From Candidatus Geohabitans tengchongensis (lineage in GTDB: Bacteria; Sysuimicrobiota; Sysuimicrobiia; Sysuimicrobiales; Humicultoraceae), in the NCBI GenBank assembly GCA_031459625.1, contig JAVKIH010000003.1:88669-152668 (forward strand): DNA of 64,000 nt, given 5' to 3'. Every line of letters begins with the position of its first letter. The stretch's first letter is position 1. The notes beneath the pieces were generated by a model, which was given only the letters and a program-made list of their open reading frames with translations, made no database searches and had not been told where the DNA came from. This document shows, piece by piece, positions 127-33,870 of the stretch. Made by a program: the position numbers and the translations under genes.

Positions 127-155
127 TTGACCGCCGCCGGCCCGGCGCCTAGAGT
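127..155 (+). promoter_or_regulatory. sigma70-type promoter for the pdxST leader
   Basis: TTGACC (127-132), 17 bp spacer, TAGAGT (150-155), directly upstream of the riboswitch-like RNA. Confidence 0.7.
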
Positions 156-175
156 CAGGGTGACAGCACCGAAGG

Positions 176-350
176 CTCGCAGCCCTTCGGGGCAGGGTGA
201 GGCTTCACCCCTTGCGGGCGAGGCCAATTCCCGATCGGCGGTGACAGCCCGTGAGGTCCTGCCGGCTGTGGCGCAGGCCGGGCCGGTGGGACCGTGGCTC
301 GGTGGAATTCCGAGGCCGACGGTACAGTCCGTATGAGGCAGGGCTGCGAG
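176..350 (+). ncRNA. FMN riboswitch (RFN)-like element, variant
   Basis: CTTCGGGGCAGGGTGA...AATTCCCGATCGGCGGT..AGCCCGTGA...CTCGGTGGAATTCCGAGGCCGACGGTACAGTCCGTATGAG matches the RFN consensus; perfect 11-bp P1 (CTCGCAGCCCT 176-186 / AGGGCTGCGAG 340-350). Confidence 0.9.
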
Positions 351-428
351 ACCAGGCGCCTGCATGCCCCGGAGACGCCCGCGTTCGGGCGTCTCTCCTT
401 TTCCAGGCGTCGGGGGGAGGGATGTGTG

Positions 429-1331
429 ATGGTGGTGGACGCCGCCCCGGTGCGGCCGGGGACGGAGCGGGTGAAGCGGGGCCTCGCCCAGATGCTCAAG
501 GGCGGGGTGATCATGGACGTCACGACCGCCGAGCAGGCCCAGATCGCCGAGGAGGCGGGCGCGGTGGCGGTGATGGCGCTCGAACGGGTCCCCGCCGACA
601 TCCGGGCCGAAGGCGGCGTGGCGCGCATGGCCGACCCGCGGCGCATCCGGGAGATCATGGAGGCGGTGACCATCCCCGTGATGGCCAAGGTGCGCATCGG
701 CCACTTCGTCGAGGCCCAGATCCTGGAGGCGCTGGGCGTCGACTTCATCGACGAGAGCGAGGTGCTGACGCCGGCCGACGAGCACCACCACATCGACAAG
801 CGGGCGTTCACGGTCCCCTTCGTCTGCGGGGCACGCGACCTGGGCGAGGCCCTGCGCCGCATCGGGGAGGGCGCGGCGATGATCCGCACCAAGGGTGAGG
901 CGGGCTCGGGCAACGTGGTGGAGGCCGTCCGCCACATGCGCCTGGTGCTGGGCGGCATCCGGCGCCTGCAGGCCCTGGCCGACGAGGAGCTGATGACGGC
1001 GGCGAAGGAGCTCGGCGCCCCCTACGCGCTGGTCCTGGAGACCCGGCAGCTCGGCCGCCTCCCCGTGGTGAACTTCGCCGCCGGCGGCATCGCCACGCCC
1101 GCCGACGCCGCCCTGATGATGCAGCTCGGCGCCGACGGCGTCTTCGTCGGCTCCGGGATCTTCAAGTCCGCGGACCCCCGCCGCCGCGCCCGGGCCATCG
1201 TCGACGCGGTCGCGCACTACCGGGAGCCGGGGGTGCTCGCCGAGGTCTCGGCCGGGCTGGGCGAGCCCATGCGCGGGCTCGACCTGCGCCGCCTGCCCGA
1301 AGCGGAGCTGCTGCAGGTGCGGGGAGTGTGA
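429..1331 (+). CDS. pdxS: pyridoxal 5'-phosphate synthase lyase subunit
   Basis: [50 protein letters not shown] motifs; GGGAGG SD before ATG 429. Confidence 0.97.
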
Positions 1332-1912
1332 GGACGGTGCGCGTGGGCATCCTGGCGCTGCAGGGGGACGTCGCCGAACACGCCGCGGTGGTGCGGGCGT
1401 GCGGCGCCGAGAACCGGGAGGTGCGCCGGCCGGAAGACCTGGCGGGCGTGGAAGCGCTCATCATCCCCGGCGGCGAGTCCACCACCATCGGACGGCTGAT
1501 GGCCCGGGTCGGCCTCGACGAGGCCATCCGCGAGCGGGTCGAGCAGGGGCTGCCAGTGCTGGGGACGTGTGCGGGGGCCATCCTCCTGGCCCGCGAGGCC
1601 CGCGGGGGCCGGCCTCCGCTGCTGGAGGTGATGGACATCGCGGTGGCCCGCAACGCCTACGGTCGGCAGCGGGAGAGCTTCGAGGCGGACATCCACGTCC
1701 CGCCGCTCGGCTCCGCGCCGCTGCGGGTGGCGTTCATCCGGGCGCCGGTCATCGAGGCGGTGGGGCCGGCGGTCCAGGTGCTGGCCTCCTTTGGAGGGCA
1801 GCCGGTGCTGGTGCGCCAGGACCGCCTGCTGGCGGCCACCTTCCACCCCGAGGTGCTGGGGGAGACCGCCCTGCACCGGTACTTCCTCGAGACCGTCGTG
1901 CGGGCGGCCTGA
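1328..1912 (+). CDS. pdxT: PLP synthase glutaminase subunit
   Basis: [38 protein letters not shown] overlap with pdxS. Confidence 0.97.
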
Positions 1913-1923
1913 ACGTCCAGGCC

Positions 1924-2756
<833 letters not shown>

Positions 2757-2760
<4 letters not shown>

Positions 2761-3434
2761 GGCGCCGCACCTCCGCGGCGGGCCAGGGCGGCGTCCACCT
2801 GTGCCCGCAGCGCCCGCGCGGCTGCGGTGATGTCCGCCTGGCCGACGACGGCGCGGATCACCGCCACGCCCGCCGCCCCGGCGGTGATGACCGCCGCCGC
2901 AGTGCCGGCATCGATCCCGCCGATGGCCACCACGGGGATGCGCACCGCCTGCACCACCCGGCGCAGTCCCTCGAGGCCCACCACCGGGCCGGCGTCGGGC
3001 TTCGTCCGGGTGGGGAAGATCGGCCCCAGCGAGACATAGGTCGCCCCCTCCCGCTCCGCCTGTACCGCCTCCGCCACCGTGTCCACGGACCGCCCGATGA
3101 CGCGTTCGGGACCCAGGTGGGCCCGCGCCCGGGCCAGGTCACCGTCGGCCTGGCCGAGGTGCACCCCATCGGCGTCACAGGCGCTGGCGACCTCGGGTCG
3201 GTCGTTCACCAGGAAGAGCACCCCGGCCTCCCGGGTGAGGCGCCGCAGCCGCCGGCCGATGGCCACGAGGGCATCGGGCGGCAGGGACTTGTCCCGCAAC
3301 TGGACGGCCGTGGCTCCGCCGGCGATGGCCTGCGCCACCTGCTCCTCGTGGGAGCACCCGGCGAGGGCCCGGTCGGTAATCACGTAGAGCCTCAGGTCCA
3401 CAGCCAGCCCGGTCCGCCCCATCCCGGTCTGCAC
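2757..3434 (-). CDS. thiE: thiamine-phosphate synthase
   Basis: [36 protein letters not shown]. Confidence 0.95.
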
Positions 3435-3438
3435 GAAC

Positions 3439-4272
3439 TCACCCGCGATCGGTCAGACCTGCCGCCTCGCGGACCGCCGCGCCGTCGCGCACGCGCCCGG
3501 GATCGAGGCCAGCCAGCGCGTCCAGCAGGGCGGGACGGAAGCTCCCCGGTCCGCGTGCCCCCCTGGCGGCCTCCTCCGCGGCCAGCCCGAAAGCCACCAG
3601 CCCAGCCAGGGTGGCCACCACCGCGTCCGGCTCCACGGCGGCCACGGCGGCGACCACCGCCGTCACCATGTCCCCGCCCCCGGTGATGCGGGTGAGGAGC
3701 GGATGGCCGTGGACGACCGTCCAGGCCTGCGCCCCATCGCTCACGACGTCGTGCTCCCCGGTGGCGGCGACGACCGCCGCGCTCCGGTGCGCCAGCCGGC
3801 GTGCCGCTTCCAGCGGGTCGACCGGCGTCTCCCCGGATTCCACCCCGACCATGGTCGCCTCGAGACCGGCGAGCGTGGCGATCTCGGCCCGGTTGCCCCG
3901 GACGACCCGCACCCGCACCGCCTCCAACAGCCGGGCTGCGGCCGCGCGGCGGAAGCGGGTGGCGCCGCACCCCACCGGGTCGAGGATCACGGGGACGTCG
4001 TGGCGGTTGGCCGCCCGCCCGGCCGCCAGCAGCACGGCGAGCCGTTCCCGGGTGGGGGTGCCCAAGTTGAGGACCAGGGCCGCGGCCTGCGCCGCCACCT
4101 CCTCGACCTCCTCGCGCGCCTGGGCCATCACCGGCCGGGCGCCGCAGGCCAGGGTGACGTCCGCGACGTCGCCGGCCGTGACGACGTTCGTCAGGTGGTG
4201 GACCAGGGGGCGCCGCCGGCGCACAGCGGCCCAGGCCTCGGCCAGCCGCGTCCCCGAGACTACCGTGGCCAC
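3439..4272 (-). CDS. thiM: hydroxyethylthiazole kinase
   Basis: PLVHHLTNVV, LNLGT, LDPVGCGAT, RGNRAEI; start inferred at GTG 4272, overlapping the upstream stop. Confidence 0.92.
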   Translation of the reverse strand: MATVVSGTRLAEAWAAVRRRRPLVHHLTNVVTAGDVADVTLACGARPVMAQAREEVEEVAAQAAALVLNLGTPTRERLAVLLAAGRAANRHDVPVILDPVGCGATRFRRAAAARLLEAVRVRVVRGNRAEIATLAGLEATMVGVESGETPVDPLEAARRLAHRSAAVVAATGEHDVVSDGAQAWTVVHGHPLLTRITGGGDMVTAVVAAVAAVEPDAVVATLAGLVAFGLAAEEAARGARGPGSFRPALLDALAGLDPGRVRDGAAVREAAGLTDRG

Positions 4273-5654
4273 ACGCCGCGCAGGAGCGCGTACGCCACCA
4301 GGGCGGCCAGGAAGCCCGGCACCGAGCCGCCCAGCCAGGGGACGACATCCCGCAGCGGGAAGGGCAACCCCACCGCCGTGAAGGCCGCGCGCAGCGCCCC
4401 CTCCCACCCCGGGAGGGCGGTGGGGGCGATCCACTGGTAGACGAGGAAGCCCACGGCCCAGGCCACCAGACCGGGCAGGGAGACGCCGCGCCCCGCGCCC
4501 TCGGCGCGCCCCGCGCCGTCCGCAGCCGCCTGCGACAGGGGCGCGCGGGCTCGGCCGCCCGGCACGAAGTAGTCGGCCGCCAGTACGCCGAACAGCGGGA
4601 CGAAGACGGCGCCGATGAGGAAGAGGAAGGCCTCGTAGGCGACCAGGTTCACGTTCACCGCCACGACGAAGCACAGCGTCCCCACGAGGACGATGAGGAG
4701 GCGCTGGGGGGCGCGCGGCAGGATGTTCTGCAGGCTGAGCGCCGTGGAGTAGATGTTGGCGAAGGCGTTGTCGGTCTCGTCCACGAGCAGCAGGAGGAGG
4801 GCCAGCGCGCCACCGGCGACGCTCAGCACCGCCGGGATCACCTCCTGGGTCCGCAGCGCCAGCACGAAGAGGGCCCCGAGCGCGTAGAACCACACGTTGG
4901 CCAGGAAGTAGCCCAGGTACGTCCCCCAGAACGCCGCCGCCGGGCGCTGCGCGAAGCGGTTGTAGTCGGCCACGAGCGGCATCCAGGAGACCGGCATGGC
5001 CACCACCAGGTCCACGCCCAGCCAGAAGGGCAGCGCGCCCGTCCCCGGCCGGGCCAGCAAGGCCCGCAGGTCGTGGTGGGTGAGCAGGTAGCCGGTCAGG
5101 TAGAGGGTGGTGGCGTAGACGAGCCAGATGGCAAAGCGCTCCAGCCACCGGCGCACGACCACCAGCGGGCCGCCCAGCGCCAGCAGGGTGGCGATGGCGG
5201 CGAAGAGGAGCGCCCACAGCGCGGGGCGGTGCAGGCCAGTGAGCTGGCGGCTGATCGCATCGGCGGCCTGCGCCATGATGTAGACCTCGAAGGCCCCCCA
5301 CCCGACCAGCTGGACCACGTTCAACACCGTGGGCAGGTAGGACCCGCGCAGCCCGAGCACCGGGCGCAGGAGGACCATCGTGGGGAGCGCGGTGCGGCTG
5401 CCGACGAGGCCGGTGAGGGCGAGCAGCAGGTTCCCGATGAGCGTGCCCAGCACGATGGCGCCCAGCGCCGCCCGGGGGCTCATCCCTGGCACCAGCAGGC
5501 CGCCCGCGGCCAGGACCAGCAGGCCGACGCCCAGGCTCGACCACAGGGCGAAGAAGTCGAGGAAACCCAGGCGGCGGTACGCCGCCGGGACCGGCTCGAT
5601 GCCCCACGCCGGCGGGACCTGGAGGCGGGGACGAGGCAGGGTGAGGACGCCCAC
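4260..5654 (-). CDS. NCS1/cytosine-permease family transporter (CytX-like HMP transporter)
   Basis: Many TM helices, MPVSWMPLVADYNRF, DETDNAFANIYS; lies in the TPP-regulated operon; start inferred. Confidence 0.85.
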   Translation of the reverse strand: MGVLTLPRPRLQVPPAWGIEPVPAAYRRLGFLDFFALWSSLGVGLLVLAAGGLLVPGMSPRAALGAIVLGTLIGNLLLALTGLVGSRTALPTMVLLRPVLGLRGSYLPTVLNVVQLVGWGAFEVYIMAQAADAISRQLTGLHRPALWALLFAAIATLLALGGPLVVVRRWLERFAIWLVYATTLYLTGYLLTHHDLRALLARPGTGALPFWLGVDLVVAMPVSWMPLVADYNRFAQRPAAAFWGTYLGYFLANVWFYALGALFVLALRTQEVIPAVLSVAGGALALLLLLVDETDNAFANIYSTALSLQNILPRAPQRLLIVLVGTLCFVVAVNVNLVAYEAFLFLIGAVFVPLFGVLAADYFVPGGRARAPLSQAAADGAGRAEGAGRGVSLPGLVAWAVGFLVYQWIAPTALPGWEGALRAAFTAVGLPFPLRDVVPWLGGSVPGFLAALVAYALLRGVWPR

Positions 5655-5692
5655 GTCAAACCGTCCCCGGGTCGGCTGCCCCCACCACAGCC

Positions 5693-6193
5693 TCACCCCC
5701 GCGCTCCGGTGGGCGCGGTCACGCCCGCGCGCTCCAGGGCCTTGAGCAGGAGCGTCCCCACCGCCGCGCCGGGGATCGAGCTGGCCAGGAAGGCCACCAT
5801 GAGCGCCCCGAGCGGCAGCGCCTTGCCCATGAAGGCGGGCGCCACGATGAGGGCGCCGACGGTGGCGCCCACGGGACCGGTGCCGAGCGGCTCGAGCAGC
5901 CCCACCCACGGCCGGCGCCACAGGCGGTAGGCGAAGCCGACGACGAGCGCCCCGGCCATCCCCCCGGGAAAGGCGAGCGGCGTGCCCACGCCCAGGGCGT
6001 TGCGCACGATGGCGGCCACCGTGGCGGCCAGGGCCGCGTACCACGGCCCCAGGGTGATGCCGGCCACCACGTTCACCATGTGTTGCCAGGGCAGGACCTT
6101 GGCGCCGGCGACCGGGATGGCACCGGGGAAGAACGAGAGGACCACCGGCAGCGCCGCGAAGAGCGCCGCCAGGACCAGCGGTCGCGCCTGCAT
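5693..6193 (-). CDS. thiW: ECF S-component, thiazole transporter ThiW
   Basis: PWQHMVNVVAGITLGPWY, GTPLAFPGGM, EPLGTG; first gene after the TPP riboswitch. Confidence 0.88.
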   Translation of the reverse strand: MQARPLVLAALFAALPVVLSFFPGAIPVAGAKVLPWQHMVNVVAGITLGPWYAALAATVAAIVRNALGVGTPLAFPGGMAGALVVGFAYRLWRRPWVGLLEPLGTGPVGATVGALIVAPAFMGKALPLGALMVAFLASSIPGAAVGTLLLKALERAGVTAPTGARG

Positions 6194-6255
6194 CGAGCAT
6201 CCCCCCTCACGGGGGAAGCAAAAGCCGCCAGTCCACGCGCTACTGGCGGCCTGCC

Positions 6256-6350
6256 TCTCCCCACGCCAGCATTACCTGGATCGGGTGCAACGGGTCGGCG
6301 TTGTCATCGGAACGCCCTCTCAGCCCGCCTCGTCGAGCTCCCCGGATGGC
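6256..6350 (-). ncRNA. TPP riboswitch
   Basis: Minus strand GGGGAGC...GGCTGAGAG...GACCC...ACCCGATCCAGGTAATGCTGGCGTGGGGA, upstream of the thi genes. Confidence 0.93.
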
Positions 6351-6437
6351 TATGCAGTTGTCCCGTCCTTACGGTAGCAGTGCGCTGCGCTCCTGGCAAT
6401 CCTCCCGCCCCGGGACGCGCACGGGTCCGCGCCCGCG

Positions 6438-7430
6438 TCAGCCCTCGACGTCGCGCGGGGCCGCGACCTCGTAGTGGATGTTCCGGGCCTCGAAGAAGTT
6501 GACGATTTCCGGCACGTCCACCTCCGTGGCCATCCAGGGCGCAGGGTTGGGGGTGTGGAACGAGGCCGGCAGGCCCAGCTCCTCCAGCCGGCGGTCGGTG
6601 ATGTACTCCACATAGGCGTTCAGAACCTCCGCGCTGACCCCCAGGACAGGCCGCTGGAGCAGCGCCCGGTTGTAGTCCCGTTCGAGGTCCACCGCCGTCA
6701 GGATGAGGTGCAGGAGCTCCCGACCCAGCCCGGGCGTCATCAGGTCGGGGTCCTGGGCGAGGAGTTCCCCGATCAGGTGGATGCCGAAGCTCAGGTGCAG
6801 GCTCTCGTCCTTGAGGGTCCAGTCCACGATGGTGGCGAGCCCACGGAGGAGGTTGCGGCGACGGAAGGTGTAGGCGAACAGGAACCCGCCGTAGAAGAAG
6901 ACGCCCTCCAGGATGATGTAGTAGCCCACCAGGTTCCGCAGGAAGCTGCGCCGGTGGGAGACCCGGGACAAATCCAGCGGGTCCAGCATGGTCCGGGACA
7001 GGTCCACCAGGAACTCCTCCTTGGCCCGGACGGCCGGCTCGTTCCGGTGGGCGTTGAAGACCCGTTCGCGCTCTACGGGAAGGGTCTTGAGCACGTACTC
7101 GAAGGCCATGGTGTGGTTGGCCTCCTCCCAGATTTGCCGGGCCAGGTACAGACGCGCTTCGGGAGCGGTGACGTGGCGGTAGATGGCGAGGACGAGGTTG
7201 TGGGTCACCAGGGACTCCATGGGGTTGAAGAAGCCCAGGAGGAGCTCCACGGCGCGCTGTTCGTCCGGGGACAGACGGGTCTCCCAGTCGCGGACATCCT
7301 CGGCCAGGGGGACCTCCTCGGGAAACCAGGTGTTGCGCTTGCCCTGCTGGGCGTGCGCGTACGCCCAGGGGTAGCTGAGGGGCACGAGCTGGACAGGCTC
7401 GAGGGGATTCCCGCCAACCAGAGGCCGCAT
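6438..7430 (-). CDS. nrdB: ribonucleotide reductase beta subunit (class Ic-type signatures)
   Basis: WFPEEVPL, GFFNPMESLV, EEANHTMAF, LEGVFFYGGF, DESLH, VNFFE..Y. Confidence 0.93.
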   Translation of the reverse strand: MRPLVGGNPLEPVQLVPLSYPWAYAHAQQGKRNTWFPEEVPLAEDVRDWETRLSPDEQRAVELLLGFFNPMESLVTHNLVLAIYRHVTAPEARLYLARQIWEEANHTMAFEYVLKTLPVERERVFNAHRNEPAVRAKEEFLVDLSRTMLDPLDLSRVSHRRSFLRNLVGYYIILEGVFFYGGFLFAYTFRRRNLLRGLATIVDWTLKDESLHLSFGIHLIGELLAQDPDLMTPGLGRELLHLILTAVDLERDYNRALLQRPVLGVSAEVLNAYVEYITDRRLEELGLPASFHTPNPAPWMATEVDVPEIVNFFEARNIHYEVAAPRDVEG

Positions 7431-7441
7431 GGTCCACCTGC

Positions 7442-9790
7442 TCAGCCGGCACAGGACTCACAGCCCGGTGCGCAGCTGATCGCGTGTTCGGGAAGTTCCA
7501 GGTTCCAGCGGAGCCGCTCGCGGGCCTTGTTGACGTGGACGGTACTGGGCTCCGCGTACATGCGGGGAGCGGTGAACAGGTAGTAGGTGGACTTGAGGCC
7601 GGCCCGCCACGCTTCCAGGTACAGGCGCGCCATGGCGTCCAGGGAGCGATCCCGCACGAACAGGTTGCGGCTGACTCCCTGGTCCACCCACTTCTGGGCC
7701 AGGGCGGCGACCCGGACGAAGTCCTCGGGAGGGATCTGGTAAGCGGTGCGGTGAACGTGGCGCAGGGCCTGCGGGATCTGCTCGATGCGCTCCAGATCCC
7801 CCCGCTCCTCGACCAGCTGCGCGCGCACCCGATCCCACAGACCCAGCGACTGCAACTGCTCCACGAGCACGCGGTTGAATTCCAGGAACTTCCCGGACAG
7901 CGTCTGGCGGGCGAAGAGGTTCGCGTAGCAGGGATCGATGCCAGGGGTGGTCCCGGCGACCAGGCTGATGGTGGCGGTGGGCGCGATGGCGAGGACCGTC
8001 CCGTTCCGGATGCCCTGACGCACCCGGTGGCGGAGGGCGTCCCAGTGCAGACGCCCCGAGCGATCCACGACAGGTCCGCCACGGAGTTCGGCCAGCTCCT
8101 GAAGGGTGTCGATGGGCACCTCACCCCGGGCCCAGCGGCTGTCGGGGAACGAGGGGAAGGGCCCGCGTGCTGTGGCCAGCTGGCAGCTGGCCTCGATGGC
8201 GCAGAAGCTCAGGAACTCCACTGCGCGGTCGGTGCACTCGCAGGAGGCTTCGTCACCGTAGCGCATGCCCAGCCGTGCGAAGACCTCCGCGAGCCCCATC
8301 AGGCCCAGTCCCACGGGCCGGTGGCGCAGGTTCCCGCGGGATGCGCGTGCTGTGGGGTAGAGGTTCAGGTCGATCACGTTGTCCAGGCCCCGGATGGCGA
8401 GCCGCACGGTGCGGCGGAGGCGATGCCAATCCAGCCCCCCGGAGGTCACGTGACGTGCCAGGTTGACGCTGGCGAGGTTGCACACAGCCATCTCTTCCTC
8501 GCTGGTCGGCAGGTGGATCTCGGTGCAGAGGTTGCTGGAGTGGATCACCCCCGGCAGCATGCTGCGTACGTTGCTGGCGTCCTTGAAGGCGACCCAGGGG
8601 TGGCTGGTCTCCTGCAGTGTGGCCAGGATCTCCCGGAACAGGGACCGGGCGCTCTCGACGCGGAATGCGCGCGGCGGGATGCGGCCGGCCCGGGCTTCCT
8701 CGATTCGGCAGCGGTAGGCCCGGGAGAAGGCCTCGCCCCACAGGTCGGGGAGCTCCGGCGTGTACGCAGGGTCGAAGAGGTACCACTCGTCGTCCCGCTC
8801 CACCCGGAGGAGGAATTCGTCCGGGACCCACAGCGCGGTGTTCAGGCTGTGGGCCCGCAGGTACGGGTCGCCGGCGTTCCGCTTGAGGTCCAGGAAGGCC
8901 CGGATCTCGAGGTGCCAGGGCTCCAGGTACACGGCGAGGGTGCCGCGGCGACGCCCTCCCTGGCTGACGGCTCTGATGAGCGAGTCGAAGAGGTGGATGA
9001 AGGGAATGATGCCGGAGCTGGTGCCGTTGATGCCGCGGACCGGAGCACCCGCGGCGCGCAGTTTGGTGACGGAGGCCCCGAGGCCGCCGGCGTACTTGGC
9101 GACCTTCCCGAACTCCTCGCAGGACTGGAGGATGTGGTGCATGCTGTCCAGCACATCCGACACGTAGCAGCTGCTGAGCTGGTGGTGAGGAGTGCCCGCG
9201 TTGAACAGGGTGGGGGTGCTGGGCAGATAGTCCAGTCGACTCATGGCGTCGTAGAAGGCCTCCGCCCATGTCGCGGGATCGCGCTCAACGAGGCTCATCC
9301 CCATGGCGACTCGCATGAACAGGAACTGCGGGACTTCCAGCAGCCTGCGGGTTTCGGGGTCCCGGACGAGGTACCGGTCCGCAAGGGTAGACACCCCGAT
9401 CAGGGGCAGCCACAGGTCCCGTTCGGGCCGCAGGACCCGGCTCAGGCCCTGGAGGTCGAACCGGAGCAGTCGTTCGTCCAGGGCCCCGGCGCTCGCGGCC
9501 TGCGGCACGTACCGGCAGAAACCGGCGCGGTAGGCGTCAGGGTCGGGTTCGGGGGTCCCCAGGGCTTCCCGGTACAGCCGGCGCAGCATCAACCTTGCCG
9601 CGAGGCGCTCGTAACCGGGGTCCTGGTGAATCCGGCCCTGGCTGGCCTGAAGCAGGGCCAGTTCGAGCTCACTTTCCCCGCTGCCGCGGACCGCGGGGTC
9701 GTCACGGAGGCTGTTCAGCAGACGCGTGCCGCCGGGGATTGGGCGGGCAAGCCGTTCCAGCCAGTGCGGCAAACCAACCAGGGTCGCCAC
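7442..9790 (-). CDS. nrdA: ribonucleotide reductase alpha subunit
   Basis: PSTPTLFNAG, LSSCY, SSNLCTEI, VCNLAS, APTATIS, KSTYY, C-terminal CxxC; start inferred at GTG 9790 after GGAGGT. Confidence 0.93.
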   Translation of the reverse strand: MATLVGLPHWLERLARPIPGGTRLLNSLRDDPAVRGSGESELELALLQASQGRIHQDPGYERLAARLMLRRLYREALGTPEPDPDAYRAGFCRYVPQAASAGALDERLLRFDLQGLSRVLRPERDLWLPLIGVSTLADRYLVRDPETRRLLEVPQFLFMRVAMGMSLVERDPATWAEAFYDAMSRLDYLPSTPTLFNAGTPHHQLSSCYVSDVLDSMHHILQSCEEFGKVAKYAGGLGASVTKLRAAGAPVRGINGTSSGIIPFIHLFDSLIRAVSQGGRRRGTLAVYLEPWHLEIRAFLDLKRNAGDPYLRAHSLNTALWVPDEFLLRVERDDEWYLFDPAYTPELPDLWGEAFSRAYRCRIEEARAGRIPPRAFRVESARSLFREILATLQETSHPWVAFKDASNVRSMLPGVIHSSNLCTEIHLPTSEEEMAVCNLASVNLARHVTSGGLDWHRLRRTVRLAIRGLDNVIDLNLYPTARASRGNLRHRPVGLGLMGLAEVFARLGMRYGDEASCECTDRAVEFLSFCAIEASCQLATARGPFPSFPDSRWARGEVPIDTLQELAELRGGPVVDRSGRLHWDALRHRVRQGIRNGTVLAIAPTATISLVAGTTPGIDPCYANLFARQTLSGKFLEFNRVLVEQLQSLGLWDRVRAQLVEERGDLERIEQIPQALRHVHRTAYQIPPEDFVRVAALAQKWVDQGVSRNLFVRDRSLDAMARLYLEAWRAGLKSTYYLFTAPRMYAEPSTVHVNKARERLRWNLELPEHAISCAPGCESCAG

Positions 9791-9909
9791 TTCGGCCACC
9801 TCCGTCCTCAACCACGGCCCTGCGTGCGATAGACGGAGGCGGCCCCAGGACGGCCTGGGAACCTGTCTCCGCTCCGCCCCACTCCACGAGGGCACGCGGA
9901 TTGTTCACA

Positions 9910-10080
9910 GGCCGGCAGGTCTTCGGACTCGGGTTCCTCCGGACCGGACGCCTTCCCGGGCCAGTTCGCCCAGTGGCCCCGATCTCCGATCCGTCCCCCT
10001 TACCGCGGCGGGCCCGTCCCGGACTCGCGCAGAGCAGGAGCGCTACACCGGGTTCCCTTTTCACCCCTTAGGGGACCGGC
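9910..10080 (-). ncRNA. cobalamin riboswitch
   Basis: Minus strand GGTCCCC..GGGG TGAAAAGGGAACCCGGTG...CCCGCCGCGGTAAG...GCCACTGGG...CCGGGAAGGC...GAGTCCGAAGACCTGCC (B12 box). Confidence 0.92.
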
Positions 10081-10083
10081 CTG

Positions 10084-10139
10084 CATCTACATCTTGTGTC
10101 CGCAGAGACTTCCTATCACAAGATGTAGCACCATGTCAA
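10084..10139 (-). promoter_or_regulatory. tandem NrdR boxes overlapping the nrdAB promoter
   Basis: CATCTACATCTTGTGT (10084-10099) and TCACAAGATGTAGCAC (10116-10131), 32 bp apart; minus-strand TTGACA at 10134-10139. Confidence 0.85.
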
Positions 10140-33790: not shown

Positions 33791-33870
33791 CCCGCGAAAT
33801 GGCACCCCGCCTGCGAGGGCGGTCCGCAAAGCCACGGGACTGGTGACAGTCAGCCGGGCTGCCGAACGGG
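33791..33870 (+). ncRNA. c-di-GMP-I (GEMM) riboswitch
   Basis: CCCGCG-AAAT-GGCAC-CCCGCCT-GCGA-GGGCGG-TCCGCAAAGCCACGGGACT...AGTCAGCCGGGCTGCCGAACGGG. Confidence 0.85.

Follow-up and report, generated by a model that had tools for sequence, protein, structure and literature searches.

Variant FMN riboswitch RNAs from C. difficile and Atopobium have been described as two subtypes, 1 and 2, in which guanines of the phosphate side are replaced by A while positions 48, 85 and 99 are kept, and which precede genes for EmrB/NorM efflux or COG3601 transporters (Atilho, Perkins and Breaker 2019, PMC6298564). In Thermaerobacter marianensis, yaaDE (pdxST) was noted to follow an "FMN riboswitch" with "no obvious role" (Gutierrez-Preciado et al. 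2015, PMC4418817), the sole mention of a Thermaerobacter FMN riboswitch that we found in the mainly open-access literature. The genes of vitamin B6 supply are better known as targets of the protein PdxR, whose regulons are reported to consist mainly of pdxST, pdxK and pdxU (PMC5320631). Two reviews from 2022 list pyridoxal phosphate (PLP) among the near-universal coenzymes without a validated riboswitch, and one of them gives a non-RNA origin of PLP as a possible reason (PMC10043782, PMC9971707). Searching the mainly open-access literature, we found no earlier report of the B6-linked FMN variant described below. A systematic search for riboswitch variants was reportedly made before, by Weinberg et al. 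in PNAS in 2017.

The locus compared here lies in the window, the whole 64-kb stretch of DNA that was analysed. RF00050 matches it at 204–348 (57.9 bits, E 1.5e-12). The family demands 66.2 bits as its gathering score, which is why the element is absent from the whole-window scan. Infernal misplaced the 5′ end because of the long P2 insertion; folding and alignment give the P1 listed in Table 1 and agree with the boundaries drawn in the initial annotation of this DNA. The six-stem RFN-type element which that annotation claimed is recovered by RF00050, by the fold and by the alignment, complete with the conserved loop motifs, and the bases it named are all as stated (U235, U252, G297, U332, A319, A333 and the guanines at 190, 191, 237, 296 and 318). 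Its promoter-like site is the only one in positions 1–2500 (shuffle mean 0.1), and a similar site lies 5′ of 58 of the 65 subtype-A elements with enough flank, by a loose pattern run without shuffle control. It also held correctly that no riboflavin gene is nearby: the ribD of the genome has its own ordinary FMN switch (98.4 bits) and is on a different contig. In its layout the RNA is like a riboswitch: it occupies the leader, with the promoter on one side and the genes on the other, and includes an expression platform. Read by eye, leader positions 169–174 can pair with 185–190 as an alternative to P1.

Table 1. Features of the pdxST leader and genes, in window positions
Feature	Position	Strand	Basis or remark
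Sigma70-type promoter	127..155	+	-35 at 127-132, 17-nt spacer, -10 at 150-155
5′ leader, partly conserved	165..175	+	subtype-A alignments
FMN-fold aptamer, subtype A	176..350	+	RF00050; model R1 131.6 bits; covariation
Aptamer stem P1	176/178-186 with 340-348/350	+	
Aptamer stem P2, long insert	201-226	+	
Aptamer stem P3	238-241 with 249-252	+	opens with G33.U46 wobble
Aptamer stem P4, long	255-293	+	
Aptamer stem P5	298-314	+	
Aptamer stem P6	320-331	+	
J1/2 guanines G9-G12, kept, phosphate side of pocket	189..192	+	GGGG in 66/66 subtype A with readable 5′ end
U46 (ordinary: C46)	252..252	+	U 68/68 subtype A vs C 56/57 ordinary
J4/5: U61, G62, G63 (ordinary A63)	295..297	+	G63 in 67/71 subtype A
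J6/1: U98 (ordinary G98), A99 kept, A102, G104, C105	332..339	+	
Anti-aptamer strand	365..374	+	exact complement of 185-194; GCCCC core conserved
Intrinsic-terminator-like hairpin 371-396 and imperfect U tract	371..404	+	MFE and centroid folds
pdxS, PLP synthase lyase subunit	429..1331	+	NF003215 517 bits, cut-off 395
pdxT, PLP synthase glutaminase subunit	1328..1912	+	TIGR03800 216 bits, cut-off 105.55

The window holds further riboswitches. A TPP riboswitch (6241–6354, minus strand, 67.7 bits) heads a thiamine salvage operon (1924–6200, minus strand) that converges on pdxST, with thiE and thiD assigned by NCBIfam and thiM-like, permease-like and ECF-like ORFs assigned by eye. A Cobalamin riboswitch (9897–10095, minus strand, 109.4 bits) lies directly 5′ of ORFs 7442–9895 and 6438–7430, which by eye resemble class I ribonucleotide reductase subunits, and a c-di-GMP-I riboswitch (53.2 bits) is found at 33791–33866 on the plus strand.

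Searching 61 related genomes with RF00050 gave 87 matches that were examined: 57 ordinary FMN switches, 29 elements of the window's type, here called subtype A, and one broken copy. Two unpublished genomes (G008 and G018) are left out of the element counts and included in the denominators 61 and 94. A U98 pattern search of 185,579 species genomes returned 37 stretches, namely 24 duplicates, two left out, one ordinary switch (L124) and ten subtype A, one of which (L102) is the other half of a split copy; the resulting genome set of 39 subtype-A loci includes one with an unreadable 5′ end (L112). The same pattern matched 50 metagenome sequences, 49 variants and one chance match. It is blind to elements that differ elsewhere, and would miss 22 of the 57 ordinary relatives. 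A model made from 35 aptamers scored complete subtype-A elements at 131 bits or more and ordinary switches at 112.6 or less across 94 genomes of the class, a sample that is identical whether drawn at class or phylum level, and placed subtype A only in families f1 and f2. Since these are two families of one phylum, the members are not independent. The genomes are labelled Armatimonadota, Ca. Fervidifonticultor, Ca. Calidihabitans, Ca. Nitrosymbiomonas or unclassified bacterium, and we take the phylum to be CSP1-3 of GTDB. RF00050 scores of the other subtype-A copies range from 26.6 to 74.6 bits. One copy without its 5′ half (L036; G002:C4:82815–82916, minus strand) still lies 5′ of a binding-protein gene, six (L112, L122, L206, L212, L242 and L246) carry long imperfect palindromic insertions in P2a or P4 resembling dispersed hairpin repeats, and G066:C68:25522–25835 (minus strand) has two overlapping FMN-like model matches, possibly a tandem aptamer.

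Pocket positions are numbered after the F. nucleatum aptamer, 8, 63, 82, 102 and 105 being assigned by counting along that numbering. The anchors for 9–12, 30–33, 46–48, 61–62, 83–85, 93, 98, 99 and 104 come from published accounts (PMC6298564, PMC12219259, PMC7573352, PMC10809319, PMC3201879, bioRxiv 10.1101/389148). Compared with the 57 ordinary FMN switches of related genomes, the 72 unique subtype-A sequences have U instead of G at position 98 (72/72 vs G in 57/57), U instead of C at 46 (68/68 vs C in 56/57), A at 102 (72/72 vs 4/57), G at 104 (60/72, with A in only 9, vs A in 54/57), a pyrimidine at 105 (70/72 vs G in 54/57) and U at 82 (63/72 vs C in 57/57). Position 63 is G in 67 of 71 and A in all 54 parsed ordinary switches, three being unparsed. 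The G98U (nt 332) and C46U (nt 252) changes singled out in the initial annotation are therefore fixed, and the altered J6/1 that it described is borne out at 102, 104 and 105. Its A63G (nt 297) is typical of the group and had to be given up as an invariant marker, A being kept in four of 71, and C30U (nt 235) is to be dropped as diagnostic, since U30, present in all subtype-A variants, also occurs in 31 of the 57 ordinary switches. The bases that it listed as kept, A48, A85, A99 and the phosphate guanines G10, G11, G32, G62 and G84, are indeed invariant, as part of a set comprising G9–G12, C31–G33, G47, A48, G62, G84, A85 and A99.

Three of the changed positions (98, 46 and 104) take part in pocket pairs seen in the solved structure, and the G98–A85, G33–C46 and G9 with A104 pairs of ordinary switches are altered in subtype A. 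G98 pairs with A85 directly beneath the flavin ring (bioRxiv 10.1101/389148), C46 with G33, whose N7 holds Mg2+ beside the phosphate (PMC10809319, PMC3201879), and A104 with G9 at the top of P1 (PMC10809319). U46 and U98 might have turned out to be common in ordinary rib-associated elements and are rare there. U46 is present in two ordinary Bacillota switches, and a Lachnospiraceae switch (L124:2104–2324), ordinary save for U98 and 5′ of a complete-looking rib operon with ribD, is the only G98U case before a rib operon and a natural single-change control. P1, P2a and P4 covary, with two-sided changes in 19 of 36 pairs and 97.7% of cells paired; none of 500 shuffles reached as high and slid controls were much lower. 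The 16 core pairs are invariant and hence uninformative about the structure. Four sequences have A41 together with U82, which would fit a tertiary 41–82 pair. Conservation upstream of pdxS (seven genomes and 13 metagenome contigs) and the covariation rule out a decaying relic, a doubt that the initial annotation had raised.

The genes behind subtype A are of few kinds. The 29 elements from the 61 genomes lie 5′ of pdxS (7), a PF07155 ECF S-component gene (7, one of these loci being split by a contig break and completed by L102) or a PF13531 binding-protein gene (15), and the further genome loci add nine PF07155 genes and one probable pdxS start, judged from translations. The 49 metagenome variants precede PF07155 (28), pdxS (13) or binding-protein (5) genes or are cut or broken (3), and two of these last begin like the same genes as the other variants. 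By comparison, the 56 first ORFs scanned behind the 57 ordinary switches are RibD (43) and PF12822 (13). No rib gene was found 3′ of any of the 39 genome or 49 metagenome copies, and the proposed co-occurrence of the substitutions with genes of B6 type is borne out, subtype A standing only before pdxST, PF07155 or PF13531 genes.

PF07155 holds transporters of several substrates. The ECF protein has a sole PDB match, 4HZU chain S (E 2.8e-20), which we take to be the HmpT/PdxU2 entry, and replaces His84 of HmpT by Lys. HmpT was first named for hydroxymethylpyrimidine, and its substrate is given as pyridoxamine (PMC4860826); three prokaryotic B6 transporters are said to belong to PF07155 and PF13531 (PMC9997740). 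The best PDB match of the binding protein is P5PA (E 5.7e-15), to which the likeness is distant, with AfuA close behind (E 3.2e-12). The P5PA ring-contact residues Tyr103 and His203 (PMC8427247) are absent and the phosphate motif alone is kept, and we rejected the protein as a P5PA orthologue because the ring residues are not kept. All 15 of its orthologues at 68% identity or more lie behind the variant (one unpublished genome left out). The variant-controlled gene L071:805–1935 has no permease beside it. A paralogue at 55–59% identity (L157–L165) sits in a full ABC operon with glycerol-phosphate-like neighbours. That operon also has a HAD-IIA phosphatase, matched best, at a score below cut-off, by the model of the phosphoglycolate/pyridoxal phosphate family.

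Behind subtype A the PF07155 gene is usually followed by a gene of the AIRS fold. This AIRS/PurM-fold gene (L075:1117–2133, L058:1104–2090, L130:2067–3071) stays together with the PF07155 transporter and pdxST whichever regulator is in place, the RNA or the protein considered below, and is a candidate B6 salvage kinase; it gives weak HypE, ThiL and SelD scores, ThiL reaching 103–110 bits, below cut-off. In the window's genome it lies apart (G000:C7:53773–54768). A thiamine transporter gene follows the ECF–AIRS pair in several loci, with its own TPP riboswitch in eight of 20 loci scanned and in seven of eight loci of family f5; thiamine co-regulation through this downstream thiT/thiW gene was rejected because of that switch, and no thiamine synthesis gene lies 3′ of any variant. 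In G024 pdxT is followed by a membrane protein (L057:3–434, minus strand) without a Pfam or NCBIfam match, which, to judge from a motif, may be similar to ECF components of the NiaX type.

Of the 61 genomes, 25 have a pdxS locus, with the RNA in seven, an adjacent MocR regulator gene in 17, neither in one (G012) and both in none; these 25 loci represent a few evolutionary events and are not independent observations. In family f5 (8/8) the same ECF gene stands in one operon with the AIRS gene, pdxS and pdxT without the RNA, beside a divergent MocR gene, one genome being split over two contigs. Family f4 (8/8) has an HD-domain gene, pdxS, pdxT and a divergent MocR gene, and family f7 (1/1) a MocR gene directly 5′ of pdxS. 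The f7 protein, the one full-length regulator tested, scores 372 against an NCBIfam PdxR cut-off of 320, and PdxR is the best match of two partial MocR proteins. The effector of PdxR is PLP. Scans with Rfam (18 loci) and with model R1 (25 loci, best 11.9 bits) found no FMN-like element before the PdxR-type operons and ruled out a diverged copy of the aptamer there. In the window's genome a MocR query gave aminotransferase-domain matches only, and in three other variant-bearing genomes (G013, G026 and G028) a full-length MocR gene is found on contigs other than that of the variant. The f4 HD-domain gene, between the PdxR-type regulator and pdxS in all eight genomes (L139–L146), is a candidate B6 phosphatase.

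Following the published mention of Thermaerobacter marianensis (PMC4418817), we sampled 400 genomes of the phylum of L124, the Bacillota. One of the best 30 pdxS loci of this sample had an FMN-like leader, and five genomes picked for follow-up gave two more. RF00050 matched 76 times in 40 relatives of G152 (66 matches examined, the other ten being among the highest-scoring), which supplied 24 of 25 elements with a different signature, subtype B, the remaining one coming from G484. A subtype-B pattern then matched 22 of 401 genomes, against three control matches, and yielded 15 new elements that served as an out-of-sample test: PF07155 in eight, pdxS in four, a class V aminotransferase in two and a contig end in one. 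All 40 elements together precede PF07155 (22), pdxS (14), a class V aminotransferase (2) or a contig end (2), and none a rib gene. The T. marianensis element is probably of this subtype.

Subtype B has C47 in 40 of 40 (pattern-selected in the last 15) and G62, A63 and G84 in 40 of 40. Position 98 is A in 35, G in four and C in one, and A is kept at 85 in 26 (other bases in 14) and at 99, which pairs with the flavin edge in the published FMN aptamer, in 25 (other bases in 15); A85 and G98 occur together in none of the 40. G9–G12 is intact in 32, with G10 lost in four, G9 changed in two and two unread. The 44 ordinary switches of the same genomes have A85, G98 and A99 in 43, one being unparsed, and the 38 that were typed precede ribD or PF12822 (37) or an EamA transporter gene (1). 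The RF00050 cut-off is passed by 14 of the 20 subtype-B copies scanned. The score of model R2 was rejected as a separator, the ordinary switch L288 scoring 136; the pocket bases do separate the two. When the model of one subtype is run on the other, the scores fall below those of most ordinary switches, which suggests, as far as sequence models can tell, that A and B had separate origins. The aminotransferases behind subtype B (L358:1588–2817, L359:1655–2815) have as best PDB match 2Z9U (E 8e-59, next 2e-53), deposited as an aspartate aminotransferase and, we assume, a pyridoxamine-pyruvate aminotransferase. About 680 nt separate one element from its transporter gene (L314:470–1135), with no long ORF picked and no Rfam match, and another, drifting element precedes a pdxS broken by frameshifts with a still readable pdxT (L335:540–1340, minus strand).

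A hairpin with at least five T in the next 10 nt follows 69 of 70 subtype-A aptamers. A consensus terminator scan of the window did not call hairpin 371–396. Strand 365–374 overlaps the first 4 nt of the terminator 5′ arm, and its pairing with 185–194 forms when the 3′ arm is blocked (-110.7 vs -127.8 kcal/mol). The terminated fold being about 17 kcal/mol more stable in silico, switching would have to be kinetic. Whole-leader MFE folds are inconsistent between members and fix no single antiterminator, so that this detail is tentative. Public RNA runs offered contigs only, with flat cover.

The comparative evidence supports a repurposing of the FMN aptamer for B6, and from the same evidence we infer that B6 vitamers are what it senses. 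The best reading, which we consider probable, is that subtype A senses a phosphorylated form of B6 (PLP or PMP) and works as an OFF-switch by means of an intrinsic terminator. The kept phosphate guanines point to a phosphorylated ligand, the ring side, loosened most in subtype B, speaks against a flavin, and the gene set and exchange with PdxR speak for B6. The FMN-derived aptamer would then have changed its ligand, most likely to PLP and otherwise to PMP or PNP; we give PLP itself close to an even chance, and PMP or PNP together a distinctly smaller one. Guanines 10, 11, 32, 62 and 84 would still grip the phosphate with Mg2+, while the rebuilt pairs 33–46, 85–98 and 9–104 and the open P1 closing pair would give the pocket a shape to suit a small pyridine ring. 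Once bound, the ligand would lock J1/2 and P1, hairpin 371–396 would form and transcription would stop before pdxS; with no ligand, 185–194 would pair with 365–374, the hairpin would be delayed and polymerase would read through. Such an OFF-switch would provide feedback control of B6 synthesis and uptake, the task of PdxR in the sister families.

Subtype A keeps A48, A85, A99 and the five phosphate guanines without exception and so may still bind FMN. It could thus be a flavin riboswitch with tuned affinity that ties B6 supply to flavin status, as the initial annotation also allowed. Some single pocket changes spare FMN binding, as in natural G84A aptamers (PMC12219259), and G98U occurs once before ribD, in L124. 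We hold this improbable, given that no rib gene stands behind any element of either subtype, that ordinary switches of the same genomes work without these changes, that positions 85, 98 and 99 are relaxed in subtype B, and that the RNA occupies the place of a PdxR-type regulator. There is also no clear logic by which high FMN should repress PdxST, which is not a flavoenzyme, and B6 uptake.

Another phosphorylated metabolite might be sensed instead, such as the thiamine precursors HMP-P or HMP-PP, one of the sugar phosphates that PdxS uses, or a B6 product that has been damaged. The original naming of HmpT, the ThiL scores of the AIRS-fold gene, the thiamine transporter genes after the ECF–AIRS pair, the phosphate motif kept alone in the binding protein and the thiamine operon converging on pdxST in the window all speak for this; yet the thiamine transporter often has its own TPP switch, no variant precedes a thiamine synthesis gene, the HmpT substrate was identified as pyridoxamine (PMC4860826) and the ECF gene shares an operon with pdxST in loci that have a PdxR-type regulator, and we rate such ligands as improbable, too. 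Dominance of the terminated fold in silico, the truncated copy L036 and the subtype-B copy before a broken pdxS (L335) would suit a borrowed leader that senses no small molecule and acts as a fixed attenuator or protein binder. However, the pocket nucleotides do not vary among the 72 unique sequences, whereas the peripheral stems covary, as selection on a ligand pocket would have it, and we regard such a leader as very improbable. Returning to B6 sensing, we lean slightly towards a broader proposal, namely that these are the first natural B6 (PLP or PMP) riboswitches, arisen twice from the FMN aptamer (A in this phylum, B in Bacillota), with the phosphate grip kept, the ring side remodelled differently and PdxR replaced.

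The elements offer more than 100 natural candidates whose pocket changes are defined and for which ordinary FMN switches of the same genomes can serve as controls. If the proposal is true, a large aptamer has exchanged the three rings of a flavin for the one ring of a pyridine as its ligand, perhaps on two occasions, many Rfam "FMN" calls would be corrected, and an RNA sensor for B6 strain engineering would be at hand. The regulons would also point out uncharacterised B6 transport and salvage genes, among them those of a B6 binding protein not known before, a salvage enzyme with the PurM fold and an aminotransferase acting on pyridoxamine.

Set beside the FMN riboswitch (RF00050, F. nucleatum 3F2Q), subtype A shares the six stems, T-loop motifs, phosphate guanines, A48, A85 and A99 as well as the position between promoter and terminator, and is changed at G33–C46, A85.G98, G9.A104 and the P1 closing pair; subtype B is changed at G47, 85, 98 and 99. 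The FMN riboswitch precedes riboflavin genes, whereas these elements precede B6 genes. The C. difficile and Atopobium variants (PMC6298564) are likewise hidden in RF00050 with an altered pocket and altered gene links, but as described they alter the phosphate side, in contrast to the ring side here. Subtype A falls outside their subtypes, keeping the guanines and having no EmrB/NorM or COG3601 genes 3′ of it. The T. marianensis element has the same pdxST link and is mentioned in a passage of PMC4418817 without sequence comparison, subtype or ligand proposal. PdxR (PMC5320631) is described as controlling pdxST and pdxU-type transporters, and it adjoins the orthologous operon in the sister families; it is a DNA-acting protein, whereas the elements described here are RNAs in the mRNA leader that fill the same slot. 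They are an altered form of the known FMN fold and, by their ligand, probably a new riboswitch class.
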